Of a stretch of 64,000 nt of DNA, positions 5,095 to 45,631 are shown one piece after another (position 1 is the stretch's first letter; each line of letters begins with the position of its first letter). Position numbers and translations under genes: made by a program. The notes below the pieces were generated by a model. The model saw only the letters and a program-made list of their open reading frames with translations, did not search any database and was not told the DNA's origin. Origin of the DNA: an uncultured bacterium (lineage in GTDB: Bacteria > Babelota > Babeliae > Babelales > Babelaceae). The stretch lies in the NCBI GenBank assembly GCA_963713855.1, contig OY970209.1, forward strand, positions 193,071 through 257,070, read 5' to 3'.

Positions 5095-5505
5095 TCACTC
5101 TAGCTCATCGAGTAAATCTTGGCAAACTTTGGCACAGTGATTGGCATTTTTTGTTAATGCCATACATGAATCGATACAAGCACGGTCCGGCGCTCTGCAT
5201 ACTTGTGCTGTCACCTGCGCTATTTGCACCGTTTTTTTGCACGCATGCGCGACAGCTTTTACTAAATCTTCGTAGTCGGATTCGGCGGAATTCTCGTACT
5301 TTTGTAAAGCCTCCAGCGTATCGTTGCAATCGTCCACAAGTGATTCCCATATCTGAATACACCTTACGCGCTCTTCATCACATTCTATCTCGTCTGTCCC
5401 TTGGCATTCAGCGACCAAACTTTGACCGGCATCTACACTTTCTTCACAGGAATCAATACATGCATCAAGGCTTTCGATGAGATCTAATGTTAAGCTCTTT
5501 TTCAT
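5095..5505 (-). CDS. Small acidic Cys-rich protein, possible four-helix-bundle metal-binding (DUF326-like?)
   Basis: 136 aa with 12 Cys arranged as CxxxC pairs (CIDSC twice, CAKVC). Highly acidic, no signal peptide, predicted helical. Confidence 0.4.
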   Translation of the reverse strand: MKKSLTLDLIESLDACIDSCEESVDAGQSLVAECQGTDEIECDEERVRCIQIWESLVDDCNDTLEALQKYENSAESDYEDLVKAVAHACKKTVQIAQVTAQVCRAPDRACIDSCMALTKNANHCAKVCQDLLDELE

Positions 5506-5578
5506 ATACGCTCCTTATAACAGTCGATATAAACATATATTATCTTAAAACAATATTTTACCTCAAGCCAAGAATCTC

Positions 5579-6811
5579 ATGAGGTCTTCCGTATTTTTTC
5601 TTTCAAAAGAGCAACAAATGAGTACATTTTTTAAAATAGTTTACACTAGCCATAAATACATCATAGACTCAACGAAAAAGGATAAAGGGAGAAAAAAAAT
5701 GTATAGAACGGTAGGCTTTCTTATGTTATTAAACACTATGTTTTTGTCACCTATTTCAACAACTGAGCACCCCAACTCCACGAGCATCGATATACATGAT
5801 TCAATAGATAATTTTAAAGCGACCCCCATTACCATTGTTCGAAGAGCTGCCTTTGACATCGGCTCTTTGACGACAAAAATGATTGTTGCTGACGTTGATA
5901 CAAAAACAAAGAAAATTGTGCGAGTTCTTCTTAAGGACGTACGCCGTGTCGGTTACAAGAATGATCTTGAACGTCCATCAAGTGATGGCAACTTTACAAA
6001 AGATCTTATAGAAGAAGGTGTTCAAGGGCTACGAGAGCTAAAAGCTCAAGCAGAAGGTCTTTCACCAGCACCTCAAGAATATGTAGCTGTAGCCACTGCA
6101 GCGCTACGAGCAGGGCTTAATAGTCAAGCAGTCGTTTCTACTATTAAACAGAAGCTTAATATACCCGTCTACATTATTAACCAAGATGAAGAAGCTCGCC
6201 TAGGCTTTAACGGAGCTATTATTGCTGTTGGATCAGATCCGCTCAAAACACTTGTATGGGATATGGGTGGCGGAAGCATGCAGATGATAGCTCACAAAGA
6301 TGGCACATTGCTTACCTACGGTAACGAGCTAGGGTTTATAGCATTTGCTCGTAAAGTAATGTCTGAGATCCAGGGTAAAGAACTTGATGCAAAGGCTACC
6401 CCAAATCCTTTAAGCCTTGATGATGCAACTGAAGCTATCGAATTAGCAAGCAAGCTAGCGCTAAAGCTGCCTTCTTTTGTGCTGGAAAAAGCAAAAGATC
6501 CTTCAACAAGAGTGATCGGAATCGGAGCGCTCTATTACGCAACACATGGCCCAGAACTTCGAGTTCAAACAAATCTCATTGATGGTTTGCCTCAACGTGG
6601 CATTTTAACACGTCTTATGTACAGAATAAGAAAAACTGATGAAGAATTGATACCGCTTACTCATAAAGCGATACCCACGCTTGTAAGCGCAACCTCATTG
6701 GCCCTCATTCTTGGATTTATGAAAGGGCTTTCACTTGAAGAATTAACAACTGTCGAAGTCAATATGACCGATGCTCTTTTAGTAGATGAACAGTATTTTA
6801 AACTTAAATAG
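5579..6811 (+). CDS. ASKHA-fold nucleoside phosphatase (Ppx/GppA-family or CD39/NTPDase-like) with signal/TM-like N-terminus
   Basis: 410 aa. Phosphate-binding motifs AAFDIGSLTTKMIV and LVWDMGGGSMQMIAH (DxGS...T and DxGGGSxQ). Alternative start at 5699 (MYRTVGFLMLLNTMFL) gives a hydrophobic leader. Confidence 0.6.
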   Translation: MRSSVFFLSKEQQMSTFFKIVYTSHKYIIDSTKKDKGRKKMYRTVGFLMLLNTMFLSPISTTEHPNSTSIDIHDSIDNFKATPITIVRRAAFDIGSLTTKMIVADVDTKTKKIVRVLLKDVRRVGYKNDLERPSSDGNFTKDLIEEGVQGLRELKAQAEGLSPAPQEYVAVATAALRAGLNSQAVVSTIKQKLNIPVYIINQDEEARLGFNGAIIAVGSDPLKTLVWDMGGGSMQMIAHKDGTLLTYGNELGFIAFARKVMSEIQGKELDAKATPNPLSLDDATEAIELASKLALKLPSFVLEKAKDPSTRVIGIGALYYATHGPELRVQTNLIDGLPQRGILTRLMYRIRKTDEELIPLTHKAIPTLVSATSLALILGFMKGLSLEELTTVEVNMTDALLVDEQYFKLK

Positions 6812-38717: not shown

Positions 38718-40075
38718 AAATTTCTTTCATGCATAAGTTTGCAAGCTTCTTTGGGGCCGCAAGACCCTTGTTTATAGGTAAAAAGAGGTAAATTCATGCT
38801 TTTAATTCTTTCAATAATACTCCATTGATATTCAATTTCATCAAATCTCACGGAAATCGTATGTTGGCCATTCATAATTTCTTTTAAAAGTATTTCATAG
38901 GCCTCTGGACTTTTTGGCCCGAAGACTGAAGCAAGATCGATAGTAGAAAGCTCGTTTTGAGTGCCAGGTTTTTTAATATTAAGCTGCAAAGAAACTTCCT
39001 CTTGAGGCATAATTCGTATCGTGAGCACGTTTGGCTCACACATACCCTGAGTGCTCCAAGGGCAATAAGCAATGGCTTTCAACATAATACGTACTTCGGT
39101 CGTTTTATGGTTAAGGGCTTTTCCCGATTCAATATAAAAAGGAACACCATGCCAAAGTGGATGATCAATAAAGAGCTTAAGAGCTGCGTACGTCTCAGTT
39201 TTCGATTCTTGCTTTACCCCTTGCTCTTTTTGATATCCCTCGTACTGCCCAAGAATACCATCGACGACGTTGATACTCCTTAAAACGTCCGCTTTTTTGT
39301 CACGAATAGCTTCGGGACTTACAGAAGCTGGCATATCCATCGCCACCAAAGAAAGAATCTGTAAAACATGATTTTGCACAACATCTTTCAAGACACCGTA
39401 CCGGTCAAAAAACTCTCCGCGTCCCTCAATCCCAATAGACTCATAAAAACATATTTTGACAGCATCAACAAATGTATTATTCCATATCGCTTTAAAAAGA
39501 GTATTAGCGTATCGTAAAGGCACAATAGAGCTTACAAGCCCTCTCGCTAAATAATGATCAATACGATACACCTGCTTTTCTGACAATGTGCGTTGTATGC
39601 ATGCATTAATAGACATGGCCGACTGCAAATCCCAACCAAAAGGTTTTTCGTACACTATTCGATATGCCATATCATGGGGCATAAGAGCACCAACAGCAAC
39701 AAGTTGTTCGGTAATAGAACAAAAGTAGTCTGCAGCAGTCGCTAAGTAAAAAAGACGAGGTTTTTCTTGTAAACCCTTCTCTTTTTGCGCATGGCGCAGC
39801 CTTTCTTCAAGAATCCCAAAATGTTCGAGTTTTGCAAAATCTACAATTGTATAAGCAAGTAGTTCTTTAAACCGACGCCAAACATCTTCTTTAAAGTCCT
39901 TTATGAAAGGACGAGCACGTTCACAGATAGCATCAACGGTGACATCTTCGCGCCCAGTGCCCATGATAAGTCCAATTGGATTACCCTGCTCAAAAAGAGC
40001 ATACAAGGCCGGTAAAATTTTTCTTTTACTAAGGTCTCCCGTTATGCCAAGAATAACGATGGTCCACTTATCCAT
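38714..40075 (-). CDS. zwf: Glucose-6-phosphate 1-dehydrogenase
   Basis: 453 aa. ILGITGDLSKRKILPALY (NADP site), RIDHYLARG (RIDHYLGKE-like), EKPFG. Confidence 0.88.
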   Translation of the reverse strand: MDKWTIVILGITGDLSKRKILPALYALFEQGNPIGLIMGTGREDVTVDAICERARPFIKDFKEDVWRRFKELLAYTIVDFAKLEHFGILEERLRHAQKEKGLQEKPRLFYLATAADYFCSITEQLVAVGALMPHDMAYRIVYEKPFGWDLQSAMSINACIQRTLSEKQVYRIDHYLARGLVSSIVPLRYANTLFKAIWNNTFVDAVKICFYESIGIEGRGEFFDRYGVLKDVVQNHVLQILSLVAMDMPASVSPEAIRDKKADVLRSINVVDGILGQYEGYQKEQGVKQESKTETYAALKLFIDHPLWHGVPFYIESGKALNHKTTEVRIMLKAIAYCPWSTQGMCEPNVLTIRIMPQEEVSLQLNIKKPGTQNELSTIDLASVFGPKSPEAYEILLKEIMNGQHTISVRFDEIEYQWSIIERIKSMNLPLFTYKQGSCGPKEACKLMHERNL

Positions 40076-40308
40076 AAAGCGTTAGCCTTACATGAAATAT
40101 TGCCATCATAGTATATAAGAAAGAAATTGAAAAATCACAAAGCTCATATATCGCTCATTGAATTCAGAAAAATGTAAAAAAGCAAAGACACCAATAGTGC
40201 TTATTCATCAAGCTTTAATACTAACGAACAGGCTTAAAGCATGTGATAGCTTAAGATCAAAAAGCAGAAATTGTCAACAAAAAAAGTTGCTTATAAAAAA
40301 GCTCTTTT

Positions 40309-41496
40309 TTAGAGTTCTTGCTTTTGAGAATGTTGCTCAAAAGATCTATAAAAGAACTTTGCAATAAGCTCATTCGTCAAAAAAACATTCTGCCCTTTTT
40401 CTAAAGTAAAAATACCACGAGAGTTAAACATGGAGTGAGAATCTAAAACTACTGTATATCCTTCACCGATAAGAATTTCTTGTATTGTATGTATGAGCGA
40501 TGATTCTGAGGCACAAAAAACTGTCTGCGCACGCGAAAGATCCAAGATATGTTCAAGAGCATAATAGGCTGCCATCTGATTTGGATAAGCAATCTGAGCG
40601 AATAGGTTATGTGATTCGGTAAATGCTTCTTTAAGCACTCCTGAACGGATGTATCTATAAGTAAGGTCAATCATCAATCCTTGTACTGTCAGAATTGGAG
40701 CGCCCTGTTCTTTTAGGGTGCGGTCAAACTCATTGAGACCATCACTTAATGAATGGAACCTGCGTTTAGATTCACTTTCTATAAAGTTAATAAGGTTTTC
40801 GATAGTTATTTTTTGCTTTTTATTTTTGAGAAGCTTAGAGTCTCTGCGAAGTACACGCACAAAGTCGTTCAATTGAGCTTCTATTTTTTCTAAAAATTCT
40901 TGAAGCTTAAAACCTTTGTCACGAGCATATCGGACACAGTTACTATGTACTTGGCGCAATGTAGAATCAAACACACTATCATATCCCTTTAAAGAGGAAA
41001 GGCTAGCTTCAAGCTCAGTGATAGTTCTGCTTATATAATAAACATCACTTTTACCTTCAGCACGTTTTCCCAGCGCTTGCAAAGGCTTTGTAATATCTTT
41101 TTGCCTTAACTGAGCTTTGATTATCTGCTCATTTTCCTCCAAACACTCCGCCTCACCCTGCACTAAACATTGACAAAAATGAAGGGGAGCGAAAGCTTTA
41201 GCATACAAGCCATCATAAGGATATCTCGAATCTAAAAGAAATTTTTTTCCGCCATACGTTTTTACCTGATCAAACCAGTAAAAAAGCTCATCAGCATCTT
41301 GAGACGCCTCGTAAGTCTTTTCTTCCAAGGCGTTAGCATTAAGCTCTTGGCATACAGGACCATCAACGCTTATAAGATAGACTTGTTGCAGCCCTTTCAA
41401 TAGGGACTTCTTTTCGAGCATGACGATGCGCGCTACACCAGCATTTAATGAGGCACAAAAAATAAACGATACAATGATGCTAAACCTAAGATACAT
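40309..41496 (-). CDS. Secreted hypothetical protein, paralog family B copy 2
   Basis: 395 aa. Signal peptide; N-terminal VMLEKKSLLKG and C-terminal HTIQEILIGEGYTVVLDSHSM conserved with the 27132-28340 protein. Confidence 0.5.
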   Translation of the reverse strand: MYLRFSIIVSFIFCASLNAGVARIVMLEKKSLLKGLQQVYLISVDGPVCQELNANALEEKTYEASQDADELFYWFDQVKTYGGKKFLLDSRYPYDGLYAKAFAPLHFCQCLVQGEAECLEENEQIIKAQLRQKDITKPLQALGKRAEGKSDVYYISRTITELEASLSSLKGYDSVFDSTLRQVHSNCVRYARDKGFKLQEFLEKIEAQLNDFVRVLRRDSKLLKNKKQKITIENLINFIESESKRRFHSLSDGLNEFDRTLKEQGAPILTVQGLMIDLTYRYIRSGVLKEAFTESHNLFAQIAYPNQMAAYYALEHILDLSRAQTVFCASESSLIHTIQEILIGEGYTVVLDSHSMFNSRGIFTLEKGQNVFLTNELIAKFFYRSFEQHSQKQEL

Positions 41497-41600
41497 GGCA
41501 ATCCCAATCTATAAGATACTTAAAAATGTAAGTATAGCACGCATCTTTCTACACTAAAATCCTTATAGAGTGCTTAAAAAGCAAGGCTAGGAGAAATATG

Positions 41601-41835
41601 CGCCTACGCGGCGAGCGCAAGGGCCATTCGCCCTTGACCCAGGCTTTATGACCTTGCCCCACACCCTTCTTAAACTTTTTACGGTTGTTTATATATACCG
41701 GAAAGGGAATCCCTTTCCGGTAATATGCGTAATGAGATAGACCGGGTACCGGTCTTATCTCATACACAATAAGCATGTAACACGCATAACAAGCAACAGG
41801 TGCAGGACAATGTCCTGCCGCTCGCCGCGTAGGCG
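41601..41835. repeat. 235-bp highly structured element bounded by perfect 17-bp inverted repeats (candidate ncRNA or MITE-like element)
   Basis: cgcctacgcggcgagcg (41601-41617) is the exact reverse complement of 41819-41835. At least four strong internal hairpins: 41618-41636, 41698-41720 (perfect 11-bp arms), 41734-41761, 41803-41817. Confidence 0.55.
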
Positions 41836-41984
41836 TATCATTACCTCATTGTTATTCGGGCACAGAACCCAGCTTTAAGGGACTTTATTCAAGGCAAAGT
41901 CAATGTAACTATTGTTTTTCAGCTATAAATATTAGTAATATTAATATATACATTATATATACAGTTAAACATTAGGGGTGCCAC

Positions 41985-42167
41985 ATGTGCAATAAGAAAC
42001 ACCATCACCATCATGACATGGAAAAAAACGGCGTAGAGCTTTTGCAAGAAGCAGTACATGTACTTAAGCACATCGAGCGCCATCTTGATCAAATCAGTGA
42101 CTGCGTTTCACGATGGGATGAAGAGGAAGAAGAGCTTTTGTGCCTTTGCGACGAAGAAGAAGACTAA
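41985..42167 (+). CDS. Small His-rich / acidic protein (possible metal-binding)
   Basis: 60 aa: MCNKKHHHHHDMEKNG...CVSRWDEEEEELLCLCDEEED. Stop is 2 nt before the next gene's start. Confidence 0.35.
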   Translation: MCNKKHHHHHDMEKNGVELLQEAVHVLKHIERHLDQISDCVSRWDEEEEELLCLCDEEED

Positions 42168-43599: not shown

Positions 43600-44154
43600 A
43601 TGAAAAAATTACTTGTAGTCATTTTTTTTATGACTTGTACAAGTACGAAAACGCACAGTGAACATGACATTACTAGTAATGTCTTCAAAAAGACCGCCCC
43701 CATTCAAGAGCACAAAGCTTGTAAATGTCATATAGTAGACATTAAACACCTTTGCGAAAGACAAGAAGAAGTCTTATATCTTATTCAAAAAAGGTACCAG
43801 GAAGCCAAACACGTTACAACCCAGTATTACTTTTACTATCTTGGAAATGCCATTTTACTTTCCATCGTGCTGGGCATTTTTTGTTTTATTGTATATAAGT
43901 TCCCCTCTGAATATAACTCGGCTTTATGGCCTGTAACGCATGATGGATATAATCAAAAATTGACCTCATTTTTAAAAACCATAGACTTCTTCGAAGCTTT
44001 CTTAGCAACGACTATCACGATTGACTCTCTATGGCTTATGTGTCTCGACTTAAAAGATGCATCAATTAAAGCCAATCTTAAAAAGCTCAAAGATGAGCAC
44101 AACATTCTTGATAATGAAATTGAAAAAACAGTAACTCACAAGGAAACTCCGTGA
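43600..44154 (+). CDS. Small membrane protein, tandem paralog family C copy 1
   Basis: 184 aa. Signal-like N-terminus, central hydrophobic segment, C-terminal coiled-coil LKKLKDEHNILDNEIEK. Confidence 0.45.
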   Translation: MKKLLVVIFFMTCTSTKTHSEHDITSNVFKKTAPIQEHKACKCHIVDIKHLCERQEEVLYLIQKRYQEAKHVTTQYYFYYLGNAILLSIVLGIFCFIVYKFPSEYNSALWPVTHDGYNQKLTSFLKTIDFFEAFLATTITIDSLWLMCLDLKDASIKANLKKLKDEHNILDNEIEKTVTHKETP

Positions 44155-44792
44155 AAAAAACGTACATAGCCCTTATTCTCTTTGTATTCGCTTTAAACCT
44201 TGAAGCTGAAAATCTAGAAGAGTACCGTCCGAACAGCAATGCGAATCTAAAAACCCCCTCAATCCAACATAAAGCTAGCTTAATTGAGACCTTAAAAGAC
44301 AATCCAAGCATTTCAAATGAACATTTAACCGAAATCTTGCAAAAAAGACAGGATAATATTGCACATCATTACAAAGAAGCGTATACGCTGAGCCAAAAAG
44401 TGCACAACCAATTCATGTACCTTATAATTGCTATTTCTGCGATAGGGATAGCTAACTTTGCCAATATGTGTTATGTGATAGGAAGGCGTCTTAACCATTA
44501 TAAAAGGCAAAACGTCCTTATTACAAAGCACCCACATTCTCCTTTTATTGGCCTATTGGAAGCGGAACGAAAAACGAACAATGTGGTAGATTATGTTTCC
44601 GCTGTGATTTTAATAGCTTTCGTTGCTACTGCTGCCTGGGGCGGATATCTTTATAGCACGCTATCAGCAATCGATTCTGATAAGCAAAAGTTGAACGAAG
44701 AGCATGTTTTCCTCGCTGAGGAAATTAGACTACTGCAAGACGAAAAACAAGGATCAAAAAGCTCCGTTTTAGAATCGAAGGTTAACGGATAA
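44151..44792 (+). CDS. Small membrane protein, tandem paralog family C copy 2
   Basis: 213 aa. LNLEAEN, LIETLKD, SNEHLTEILQKRQDNI and C-terminal EEHVFLAEEIRLLQDEKQ conserved with copy 3. Start overlaps copy 1's stop. Confidence 0.5.
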   Translation: MKKTYIALILFVFALNLEAENLEEYRPNSNANLKTPSIQHKASLIETLKDNPSISNEHLTEILQKRQDNIAHHYKEAYTLSQKVHNQFMYLIIAISAIGIANFANMCYVIGRRLNHYKRQNVLITKHPHSPFIGLLEAERKTNNVVDYVSAVILIAFVATAAWGGYLYSTLSAIDSDKQKLNEEHVFLAEEIRLLQDEKQGSKSSVLESKVNG

Positions 44793-44879
44793 TCAATTAC
44801 GCGATGCTCAAAGATTTTTTGAAAATTTATTAAGTTGCTATAGCCTAAAACTGTTCATCACTCAAACAAAGGATTTTAC

Positions 44880-45518
44880 ATGAAAAAATTGCTTATACCT
44901 CTTGTTATGATCACCATCAGTTTAAGTCTTGAGGCTCAAACTAAAGATATAAGCTTTGACAGCGATGAGATTGCTTTAGCCCAAGAACGCCAGGCTCGCT
45001 TAATTGAAATCTTAAAAGACGTGCCTGTAGATGCAAAGGTCTCAGATGAGCACATGATTGAAATCATAAAACAAAAACAGGACGAGATTTCAAAGCTCTA
45101 TAAAGACGATTATGAGACATATCAGAATTTATCCCAACAAGACTATTATCACACTTTTATTGGCGGTGGTTTAATTTCGGGGGTTTTTGCTCTTCTCCTA
45201 TATCAATTGAATAAATATCGAGCTATCGGTAAAACACGTCAAGATTTTTTTGGTGAGCACACTCCTGAGTGTACAGTATCGTTTCAAGATGTTACTAAAC
45301 TATTGCTTCAAGAAGATAAAAATTTAGGAGGCATAAATAACGCTTCCGTCTTAACGGTGCTTACCTCTGCTATTTATTACTTTTGGACACTGTACCTATC
45401 AAACCGCCTTACAAAAACCAACGTTAATATGCAAGACCTAAAAGATGAATATGCTTTCCTCGAGGATGAGATTGAAATTCTAAAAAATGAAAATTGTAGT
45501 CCTAAAAGTAAAACATAG
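44880..45518 (+). CDS. Small membrane protein, tandem paralog family C copy 3
   Basis: 212 aa. SLEAQT, LIEILKD, SDEHMIEIIKQKQDEI, C-terminal DEYAFLEDEIEILKNE. Confidence 0.5.
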   Translation: MKKLLIPLVMITISLSLEAQTKDISFDSDEIALAQERQARLIEILKDVPVDAKVSDEHMIEIIKQKQDEISKLYKDDYETYQNLSQQDYYHTFIGGGLISGVFALLLYQLNKYRAIGKTRQDFFGEHTPECTVSFQDVTKLLLQEDKNLGGINNASVLTVLTSAIYYFWTLYLSNRLTKTNVNMQDLKDEYAFLEDEIEILKNENCSPKSKT

Positions 45519-45594
45519 AAGCTAGAATGCTCGACAGATAAAAAGGGCCATTTTTTAGCAACTCTTTATTGAGCTGGTCCCATACCACAAAAAT

Positions 45595-45631
45595 AAAAGG
45601 GGGAGAGTTTAAAACTCTCCCCCTTTTTAGC
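45595..45631. terminator. Bidirectional rho-independent terminator between family C copy 3 and nrdB
   Basis: aaaa gggggagagtt taaa aactctccccc tttttag: 11-bp perfect stem flanked by an A-run and a T-run. Confidence 0.7.

Follow-up and report, generated by a model that had tools for sequence, protein, structure and literature searches.

A GC-rich, hairpin-rich element in a Babelaceae genome as a probable copy of an undescribed interspersed repeat family

Among the repeats described from bacterial intergenic DNA, the repetitive extragenic palindromic (REP) sequences, together with their paired and mosaic forms, the REPINs (REP doublets forming hairpins) and the bacterial interspersed mosaic elements (BIMEs), come closest to the element that is the subject of this report. 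This element is located at positions 41598-41838 (no strand assigned) of a 64-kb stretch of contig OY970209.1 from an uncultured bacterium of the Babelaceae, which at its full length is called the window here, and it consists of a core 5'-CGCCT...AGGCG-3' (41601-41835) with N-AT on each side. REP-type repeats, which are associated with the RAYT (REP-associated tyrosine) transposases of the Y1 type, possess a short GC-rich palindromic end unit containing GTAG and are scattered through intergenic DNA, where a unit stands alone or is paired with an inverted one so that both fold into a larger hairpin; no target-site duplication is formed, and the hairpins are kept by compensatory changes. Most of these traits recur here: the copies are scattered and intergenic with hairpins kept by compensatory changes, the window copy represents such a doublet, GTAG, present in part of the ends, is embedded as GC-GTAG-GC, and no clear target-site duplication is seen. 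Unlike the REP sequences of 20-40 nt, however, the units described here are about 100-170 nt long and contain several hairpins, and their GTAG resides inside a mini-hairpin at the outer end and not 5' of the palindrome. There are also only 1-3 copies per 20-70 kb sampled, no RAYT gene was found in the loci examined, and no Y1_Tnp domain is found among the precomputed Pfam hits of the fetched loci.

Also among the closest known systems are the bacterial miniature inverted-repeat transposable elements (MITEs), such as Correia elements (CREE), the enterobacterial repetitive intergenic consensus (ERIC/IRU), the palindromic elements RPE of Rickettsia and QMITE of Coxiella. As in the present case, these are non-coding elements of 100-340 bp with terminal inverted repeats and a strong fold-back structure, which lie scattered between the genes of small AT-rich genomes, are polymorphic for presence or absence between relatives and form size classes; with 241 non-coding base pairs the window element also lies within the size range of MITEs (below about 600 bp). 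In contrast to MITEs, only AT is found beside the ends and there is no consistent target-site duplication, one copy from a related genome (copy B of locus L236) has no 5' arm, and the family interiors cannot be aligned between genomes. No parent insertion sequence with these ends is known, and about 250 kb of loci yielded no autonomous element with the family ends. Fungal mitochondria with AT-rich genomes contain GC clusters and double-hairpin elements, which are likewise modular, mobile-looking and composed of GC-rich palindromic modules in AT-rich DNA, but which belong to another domain of life, measure 30-60 bp and have no sequence in common with the element. Finally, non-coding RNAs (ncRNAs) with a long helix between the 5' and 3' ends, such as 6S RNA, the hok-type mRNAs and RNAs excised by RNase III, resemble it in their closing helix of about 20 bp, their multi-branched interior and their very low folding energy. 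The element differs from these in that it matches nothing in Rfam, lacks a 6S-like central bubble as well as a promoter and a terminator, has hardly any G·U pairs in the window copy and is not conserved at the syntenic site.

We think that the element is probably one copy of an undescribed GC-rich, hairpin-rich interspersed repeat family of the Babeliales (Dependentiae), which is REP/REPIN- or MITE-like and represents non-autonomous mobile DNA, with considerable room left for other explanations. The family exists, it is multi-copy in relatives, it is present or absent at orthologous sites and keeps its hairpins by compensatory changes, and the window element matches it. It is unusual in its long multi-hairpin units, in the conservation of only the 3' module between genomes and in the lack of a target-site duplication. 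No description of interspersed repeats of this kind in Dependentiae was found in the literature. The members of this phylum, which live as parasites or symbionts of protists, have been little studied. A repeat family defined by an end motif could serve as a marker for genome dynamics and strain typing and as a handle for finding the mobilising enzyme, and it would explain recurrent breaks in short-read assemblies of Dependentiae genomes. The copies adjoin secreted effector-like genes and sit in promoter regions, and may thus alter expression.

Dispersed copies in related genomes and their match to the window element

When L241, a locus from a related genome that encodes one of the homologues of the neighbouring 395-aa protein described below, was searched by blast with the element, a 21-nt match to the right arm was obtained, which is placed exactly at the edge of the strongest structural outlier of L241. 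The arm was then sought by fuzzy search in all Babeliales loci in hand (about 103 kb). This resulted in seven matches with at most two mismatches to the 13-mer core, distributed over two genomes, where 0.67 matches are expected and none of 300 shuffles preserving local composition reached seven. Five of the seven are intergenic, and each of these marks the outer end of a GC-rich structured non-coding stretch, while the remaining two are inside genes and may be due to chance. The structured elements that end at the motif have a GC content of 53-64% in loci of 39-44%. They are located as follows:

L241, 276-292: end motif CGCCCGCCGCGGAGGCG of an element that reaches up to 292
L125, 140-156: arm-like match at the end of an element that reaches up to 156 (copy L125a)
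L125, 6236-6252 with 6319-6335: inverted pair about 100 bp apart, bounding an element at 6236-6335 (copy L125b)
L236, 5546-5562: right arm, with an imperfect left arm at about 5233-5247, of an element at 5231-5565 (copy A)

The aligned ends share YTGCCGCY-SGCC-GCGTA-GGCS, and the end motif proper, SGCC-GCGTA-GGCS, forms a 4-bp mini-hairpin. GTAG is found inside the unit in five of nine ends, the others containing CAGG, ATAG, GGAG or AAAG. Arms are imperfect in L125b and L236A, both of which carry two of them. An AT is found zero or one base outside in six of the nine ends; in the three copies with both arms it is present at all six ends, one base out in four of them and directly adjacent in two (L236A). 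Because AT is its own reverse complement, the AT outside the ends is indistinguishable from an extension of the inverted repeat.

Two copies of about 330 nt are found in L236, which are about 5 kb apart (A, 5231-5565; B, 272-598) and 79-83% identical over about 310 nt, with the homology ending at the end motif. Among 87 predicted pairs, the comparison of A and B revealed 10 compensatory double changes and 7 one-sided changes that keep the pair, and none that breaks it. In a control in which the partners were slid by 1-3 columns, only 0-1 double changes and about 40% pairing were obtained. Covariation, which the initial annotation had proposed to look for in relatives, is present between these two copies and shows that the hairpins themselves are under constraint, so that it is directly testable whether they act as RNA or as single-stranded DNA. 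Copy B lies between the genes of a purine DNA glycosylase and a NUDIX protein, in a spacer that comprises 588 nt in L236 versus 110 nt in L241, where the site is empty; the flanking glycosylase is 60% identical between both loci. A 74-aa open reading frame (ORF) called at L236 244-468, within copy B, is probably spurious. In the 674-nt spacer that holds copy A, this copy is followed at L236 5600-5720 by GGATGCGCAGTCCATAAT and CGTGCAGGCCATAT, more degenerate sequences resembling the arms, which suggests clustered or fragmentary units as in BIMEs.

The L241 and L125a copies come from one sample (SRR21358938) and have a hairpin and the 3' end in common; the Logan contigs of both end inside this common family hairpin (at L241 position 1 and L125 position 1). 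Two copies were found in 21 kb of L236, three in 29 kb of the SRR21358938 genome and one in about 74 kb of the window's genome. Family members measure between about 100 and 337 nt, and between genomes they have only the 3' module of about 45 nt in common. The orientation of the copies relative to neighbouring genes is inconsistent.

For a test of the window element, only the 3' 143 nt of the two L236 copies went into a covariance model. This model matches L241 202-297 (E=0.0015), and with filters off over 12 kb its best match is window 41723-41840 on the + strand (13.1 bits, E=0.016), followed by window 41596-41720 on the - strand (11.4 bits, E=0.044). As these two best matches are the two halves of the element, the element consists of two family units placed head to head. 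In each of them a large hairpin (H3 in the right unit, H2 in the left) is followed by a spacer, a small penultimate hairpin (H4 and H1, respectively) and the end motif. The parts of the window copy are:

41723-41840, + strand: right family unit, with large hairpin, spacer, penultimate hairpin and end motif
41596-41720, - strand: left family unit, inverted, which makes the element a head-to-head doublet
41601-41617, + strand: left terminal arm CGCCTACGCGGCGAGCG, an inverted copy of the family end motif
41819-41835, + strand: right terminal arm CGCTCGCCGCGTAGGCG, the family end motif SGCC-GCGTA-GGCS with CGCY before it
41618-41636: hairpin H1, 7 bp with a 5-nt CATTC loop, directly against the left arm without a linker; penultimate hairpin of the left unit
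41696-41722: hairpin H2, a perfect 27-bp palindrome (13+1+13), TACCGGAAAGGGA-A-TCCCTTTCCGGTA; large hairpin of the left unit
41732-41763: hairpin H3, a 14-bp stem with a single bulged T and the loop GTA; it is the large hairpin in the right unit
41802-41818: hairpin H4, a perfect 17-bp palindrome (8+1+8), GCAGGACA-A-TGTCCTGC, directly against the right arm
41684-41690 with 41791-41797, + strand: nested long-range helix P2, 7 bp with one G·U, predicted by minimum free energy (MFE) folding only
41724-41730 with 41782-41788, + strand: nested long-range helix P3, 7 bp, likewise an MFE prediction only
Terminal oligonucleotide of the element, foldable: CTGCCGCTCGCCGCGTAGGCGTAT

H4 is homologous to the penultimate hairpin GUGCAG...CUGCCGC of the L236 and L241 copies, and H4 plus arm (GUGCAGGACA-A-UGUCCUGCCGCUCGCCGCGUAGGCG) aligns directly with the 3' modules of both. 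With an end-motif profile made without window sequences, the two window arms take ranks 1 and 2 (right arm, E=0.0055; left arm, E=0.015), and the next match has E=15. The leaning of the initial annotation towards a DNA-level or mobile element is in substance supported by the terminal motif and 3' module at the ends of dispersed multi-copy elements and by the presence or absence of these at orthologous sites.

Fold and symmetry of the window copy

The 241-bp element has a GC content of 51%, compared with 41% for the window. Its paired parts reach 60% GC, and its unpaired parts, with 32%, resemble the surrounding intergenic DNA. The MFE is -118 kcal/mol for the + strand (z -12.1), -128 kcal/mol for the - strand (z -10.9) and -71 kcal/mol with DNA parameters (z -11.8), and a 240-nt sliding scan shows the element to be the sole strong structural outlier of the whole window, at -7.1 standard deviations after GC correction. 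The right arm is the exact reverse complement of the left one over 17 bp, and the left arm is itself a mini-palindrome CGCC-TACGC-GGCG. When the 17-mer is sought with up to three mismatches, it is found in the 64 kb at two places only, which are both arms, where 0.02 are expected. The terminal inverted repeat reaches out to 41598-41838, either as 20 bp with one G·T or as 25 nt at 88%. The perfect 17-bp repeats and the four internal hairpins were already seen in the initial annotation, and both could be confirmed, together with an extreme fold on both strands.

Of 80 pairs in the window copy 78 are Watson-Crick pairs, and the two others are G·U on the + strand. The palindromes of H2 and H4 leave just a single base unpaired at the centre. 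This symmetry suggests either a DNA-level constraint or a young copy. The unpaired segments of the + strand are poor in G (6 G in 81 nt). The helix centres differ and the halves are dissimilar beyond the arms, for which reason both an internal duplication and one large palindrome were rejected. A 13-nt direct repeat at 41636 and 41865 was judged to be due to chance.

A 75-aa ORF annotated through the element on the - strand possesses neither a Shine-Dalgarno sequence nor a homologue. On the + strand, an AGGAG-N4-ATG at 41589-41600 starts a 17-aa ORF MRLRGERKGHSPLTQAL (41589-41651) that runs across the left arm and H1, and a mirror ORF on the - strand likewise begins with M-I-RLRGER, because the arms are identical. 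Both are probably by-products of the palindrome. The other perfect hairpins of the window are ordinary terminators between convergent genes and have no sequence in common with the element. AAAAGGGGGAGAGTTT-A-AAACTCTCCCCCTTTT (45593-45629), for example, is a perfect 16-bp palindrome between the convergent genes of a 212-aa protein and the ribonucleotide reductase small subunit and is a textbook bidirectional terminator.

Possible mode of spread and the case for a structured RNA

Movement of the family as DNA and the kind of enzyme behind it are inferences, as is the copy number within the window's own genome. A family unit comprises a variable body of GC-rich hairpins, the penultimate hairpin (GUGCAG...CUGCCGC) and the conserved terminal mini-palindrome, usually followed by N-AT, and the window copy consists of two diverged units joined head to head, which explains its perfect terminal inverted repeat of 17-20 bp as well as the two large and two small hairpins in mirror order. 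An enzyme acting in trans would recognise the terminal hairpin motif, probably in folded single-stranded DNA, and the element would thereby spread to AT-rich intergenic sites without an evident duplication of the target site. If neighbouring genes are affected, this would be a secondary consequence.

Several findings weigh against such a mobile repeat. The profile test is partly circular, because the ends in the relatives were first found via the window arm, whereas the covariance-model test and the repeat boundaries are free of that circularity. The link between window and family comprises about 22-45 nt of the 3' module plus the architecture, and the two E-values that the covariance model gives in the window are modest and roughly calibrated. 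No direct repeat longer than 2 bp flanks the copies, so that no convincing target-site duplication is seen, and the precomputed Pfam hits contain no transposase, RAYT or integrase in any locus examined. Only one copy was seen in the window plus about 10 kb of the same genome, and the 75-aa ORF, which can serve as a proxy for other copies, is a singleton among 5.8 billion protein clusters. Finally, G·U pairs are numerous in the L236 copies, whose fold is better on one strand than on the other (-91.7 versus -76.0 kcal/mol), and these features fit a selection on RNA or on a single DNA strand at least as well as a double-stranded DNA site. In the window and at the syntenic site the element is indeed a single copy without conservation, which the initial annotation had counted as a reason to abandon its proposal, but this is not the case at other loci of the relatives.

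With respect to the window's own genome, short-read-style Logan contigs, which stem from an independent assembly of the sample, are identical to 41598-41669 and 41810-41838. Both arms, H1 and one half of H4 therefore do not owe their existence to a single assembly. The retrieved contigs end at 41669 and restart at 41810, leaving 41670-41809 uncovered. If Logan was built at k=31, as we assume, this break is as expected from an exact repeat of about 41640-41839 elsewhere in the sample, and the right limit of this repeat would coincide with the element end. This is only a hint at a further copy, since contigs from this sample tend to be fragmentary anyway. In two different samples Logan contigs break off inside family elements, and the family repeats thus appear to break short-k-mer assemblies.

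The alternative that retains most weight, although we consider it unlikely, is that the copies are structured ncRNA genes or modules, which are transcribed from the strand reading 5'-CGCCU...AGGCG-3' and keep their hairpins for an RNA function; the 20-bp closing helix of the window copy could then be an RNase III processing stem. The pair-keeping changes of the L236 copies, in which about ten G·U pairs are kept in both, are in agreement with this view, as is the better folding term of the + strand. In addition, the arm pair at the R position in L125b and L236A is G·U when read on this strand, whereas the opposite strand would have A·C, and the two non-Watson-Crick pairs as well as the G-poor unpaired segments of the window copy point to the same strand. 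However, compensatory changes are also expected for hairpins that are used as single-stranded DNA. Size varies between the copies and only the 3' module is shared, the orientation to the neighbours is not consistent and the presence at orthologous sites differs, and a copy that is 98% Watson-Crick paired, has loops of at most 3 nt on three of four hairpins and is palindromic to the centre would be unusual for an evolved RNA. No Rfam family is matched by the window at the gathering threshold over its 64 kb, with noise only at E up to 10 around the element, or by the copies of the relatives at any threshold; the window contains no tRNA, tmRNA or rRNA, and a consensus scan detected no promoter or terminator bounding the element. 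The initial annotation had recognised no RNase P, tmRNA, SRP or 6S motif either. Its suggestion of a structured ncRNA with a closing P1 helix keeps some weight as a property of the family through the covariation and the G·U pairs in the copies of the relatives, but it lacks an Rfam match and bounding transcription signals.

Other classes were considered and rejected. A replication origin or terminus is not indicated, as the cumulative GC skew is monotonic across the window and six DnaA-like boxes versus 7.4 expected are found, none of them close to the element. A cluster of intrinsic terminators was rejected because U-tracts are absent and both flanking genes point away from the element, which leaves no transcript to be ended there. 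Integron attC sites have RYYYAAC/GTTRRRY core sites and 57-141 bp, while the element has ends CGCCT...AGGCG and 241 bp, and its neighbourhood encodes no integrase domain. Both arms separated by a gap gave no match in a metagenome scan, and a contig scan of genomes with the bare 17-mer gave 120 single-arm chance matches in GC-rich genomes (51-70% GC) and none with both arms. The H2 palindrome detected 73 generic, otherwise dissimilar hairpins in a metagenome scan, and viral scans gave no match for H2 and H3 and 34 chance matches for one arm in phages averaging 64% GC. The blastn comparison with phage and plasmid collections yielded nothing.

Flanking genes and the less probable explanations

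The element is situated within a 488-nt divergent spacer between a 395-aa gene (40309-41496, - strand) and a 60-aa ORF (41985-42167, + strand). A neighbouring glucose-6-phosphate dehydrogenase has its best named matches in Candidatus Babeliales/Dependentiae, and in the nearest available relative, L123, this enzyme is 72% identical. L123 is syntenic on both sides of the element but contains neither the element nor the 395-aa gene: the homology extends from 40016 to 40282 and resumes at about 41866-41907. Element and gene lie within a single block of about 1.55 kb (about 40283-41866), which is lineage-specific and missing from L123.

The 395-aa protein has an N-terminal signal peptide and a C-terminal KQEL, and it matches nothing in Pfam, PHROG or the PDB. 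A full phmmer search retrieved a small family of proteins of about 385-410 aa with 22-29% identity, signal peptides and a C-terminal HEEL, which, judged from sequence, look like secreted effector-like Babeliales proteins tagged for retention in the endoplasmic reticulum. An AlphaFold model was unusable (pLDDT, the predicted local distance difference test score, of 35). A retron, an IS110 bridge RNA or an IscB/TnpB guide RNA paired with this protein was rejected on the basis of its signal peptide, the absence of Pfam, PHROG and PDB matches and the HEEL ends of its remote homologues.

The position of the element at the edge of the block, 104 nt upstream of the 395-aa gene and on the strand of that gene, would suit a local control region, be it a DNA operator, a cruciform or a 5' leader, that is gained and lost together with the gene. 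We regard this as improbable. Two placed remote homologues in other genomes have short upstream spacers of about 80-150 nt without such an element, and elsewhere the end motif adjoins unrelated genes. Moreover, a -10-like TATACT between element and ATG, which was read by eye and not called by the promoter scanner, would place the element outside the mRNA.

Similarly improbable is a structured replicator that moves via a single-stranded intermediate read from the conserved 3' module, instead of a cut-and-paste DNA repeat. It could be a SINE-like (short interspersed nuclear element-like) non-autonomous retroelement using a resident reverse transcriptase, or a guide-type RNA of an unrecognised mobile system, and it would explain why only the 3' part of about 45 nt is shared and the 5' ends differ, as well as the covariation of hairpins with many strand-specific G·U pairs and the fact that neither target-site duplication nor transposase is seen. 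An Rfam match to group II intron domains D1-D4 (46.7 bits) was obtained at L126 15616-15773 in a related Babeliales genome, and retroelements are therefore present in the lineage.

The 60-aa ORF is His-rich, acidic and Cys-containing and is followed by a Cys-rich secreted ORF. Its start at 41985 is 147-150 nt downstream of the element, close to the 150 nt given in the initial annotation, which had also suggested a cis-regulatory RNA for these metal-binding-like ORFs. We consider such a riboswitch or attenuator to be very improbable. The element is on the side of the mini-gene, 147 nt upstream, the AGGAG-N4-ATG opens a 17-aa ORF through the left arm, and there is a weak match to an Mg-sensor (15.8 bits versus a cut-off of 40 bits), but no riboswitch family is matched. 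Above all, the mini-gene is kept in L123 (71% identity) and L125 (57%) together with a block of about 80 nt directly upstream of it (41905-41984), and the element is absent from both, so that it is not a conserved leader of the mini-gene and the suggestion is contradicted in that form; it would survive only as an addition specific to this lineage. The mini-protein itself, with its CxC (MC..HHHH..LKHIE.HL..C..RWDEE..C.CDEE), is conserved in three genomes, where mini-gene and upstream block together occupy window 41905-42167, L123 9389-9651 and L125 804-1078. The block conserved with it is AT-rich and partly palindromic (AACTATTGTTTTTC...TAAATATTAGTAA), and it probably acts as promoter or operator for an operon of metal-related small proteins.

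A type I toxin-antitoxin-like locus, in which a structured mRNA of about 240 nt is locked by pairing of its 5' and 3' ends and encodes a small hydrophobic peptide, is equally doubtful. The hok and aapA1 mRNAs are similar in size and closing helix, and small ORFs of 30 aa (+ strand, 41648-41740, grand average of hydropathy (GRAVY) 0.65) and 28 aa (- strand, 41841-41755, GRAVY 0.77) are present. However, the peptides have no clean transmembrane stretch and a poor Shine-Dalgarno spacing, the family copies in relatives contain no common ORF, and the mirror symmetry of the peptides counts against the locus, because palindromes give it automatically. Least credible of all is an assembly or sequencing artefact, which the uncovered interior might suggest, as the parts reproduced in independent Logan contigs are exact and related elements occur in other assemblies (ENA long contigs, Logan).

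Two minor observations concern genes at a greater distance. Window 43600-45518 contains three tandem paralogues (184, 213 and 212 aa), all of which have a signal peptide and a single hydrophobic segment, where L123 has one 224-aa gene, and this is a local gene-family expansion. At L126 7029-8414, a region of 1.4 kb without a called gene carries degenerate repeats of lactonase or beta-propeller-like coding sequence, which is probably a decaying gene.

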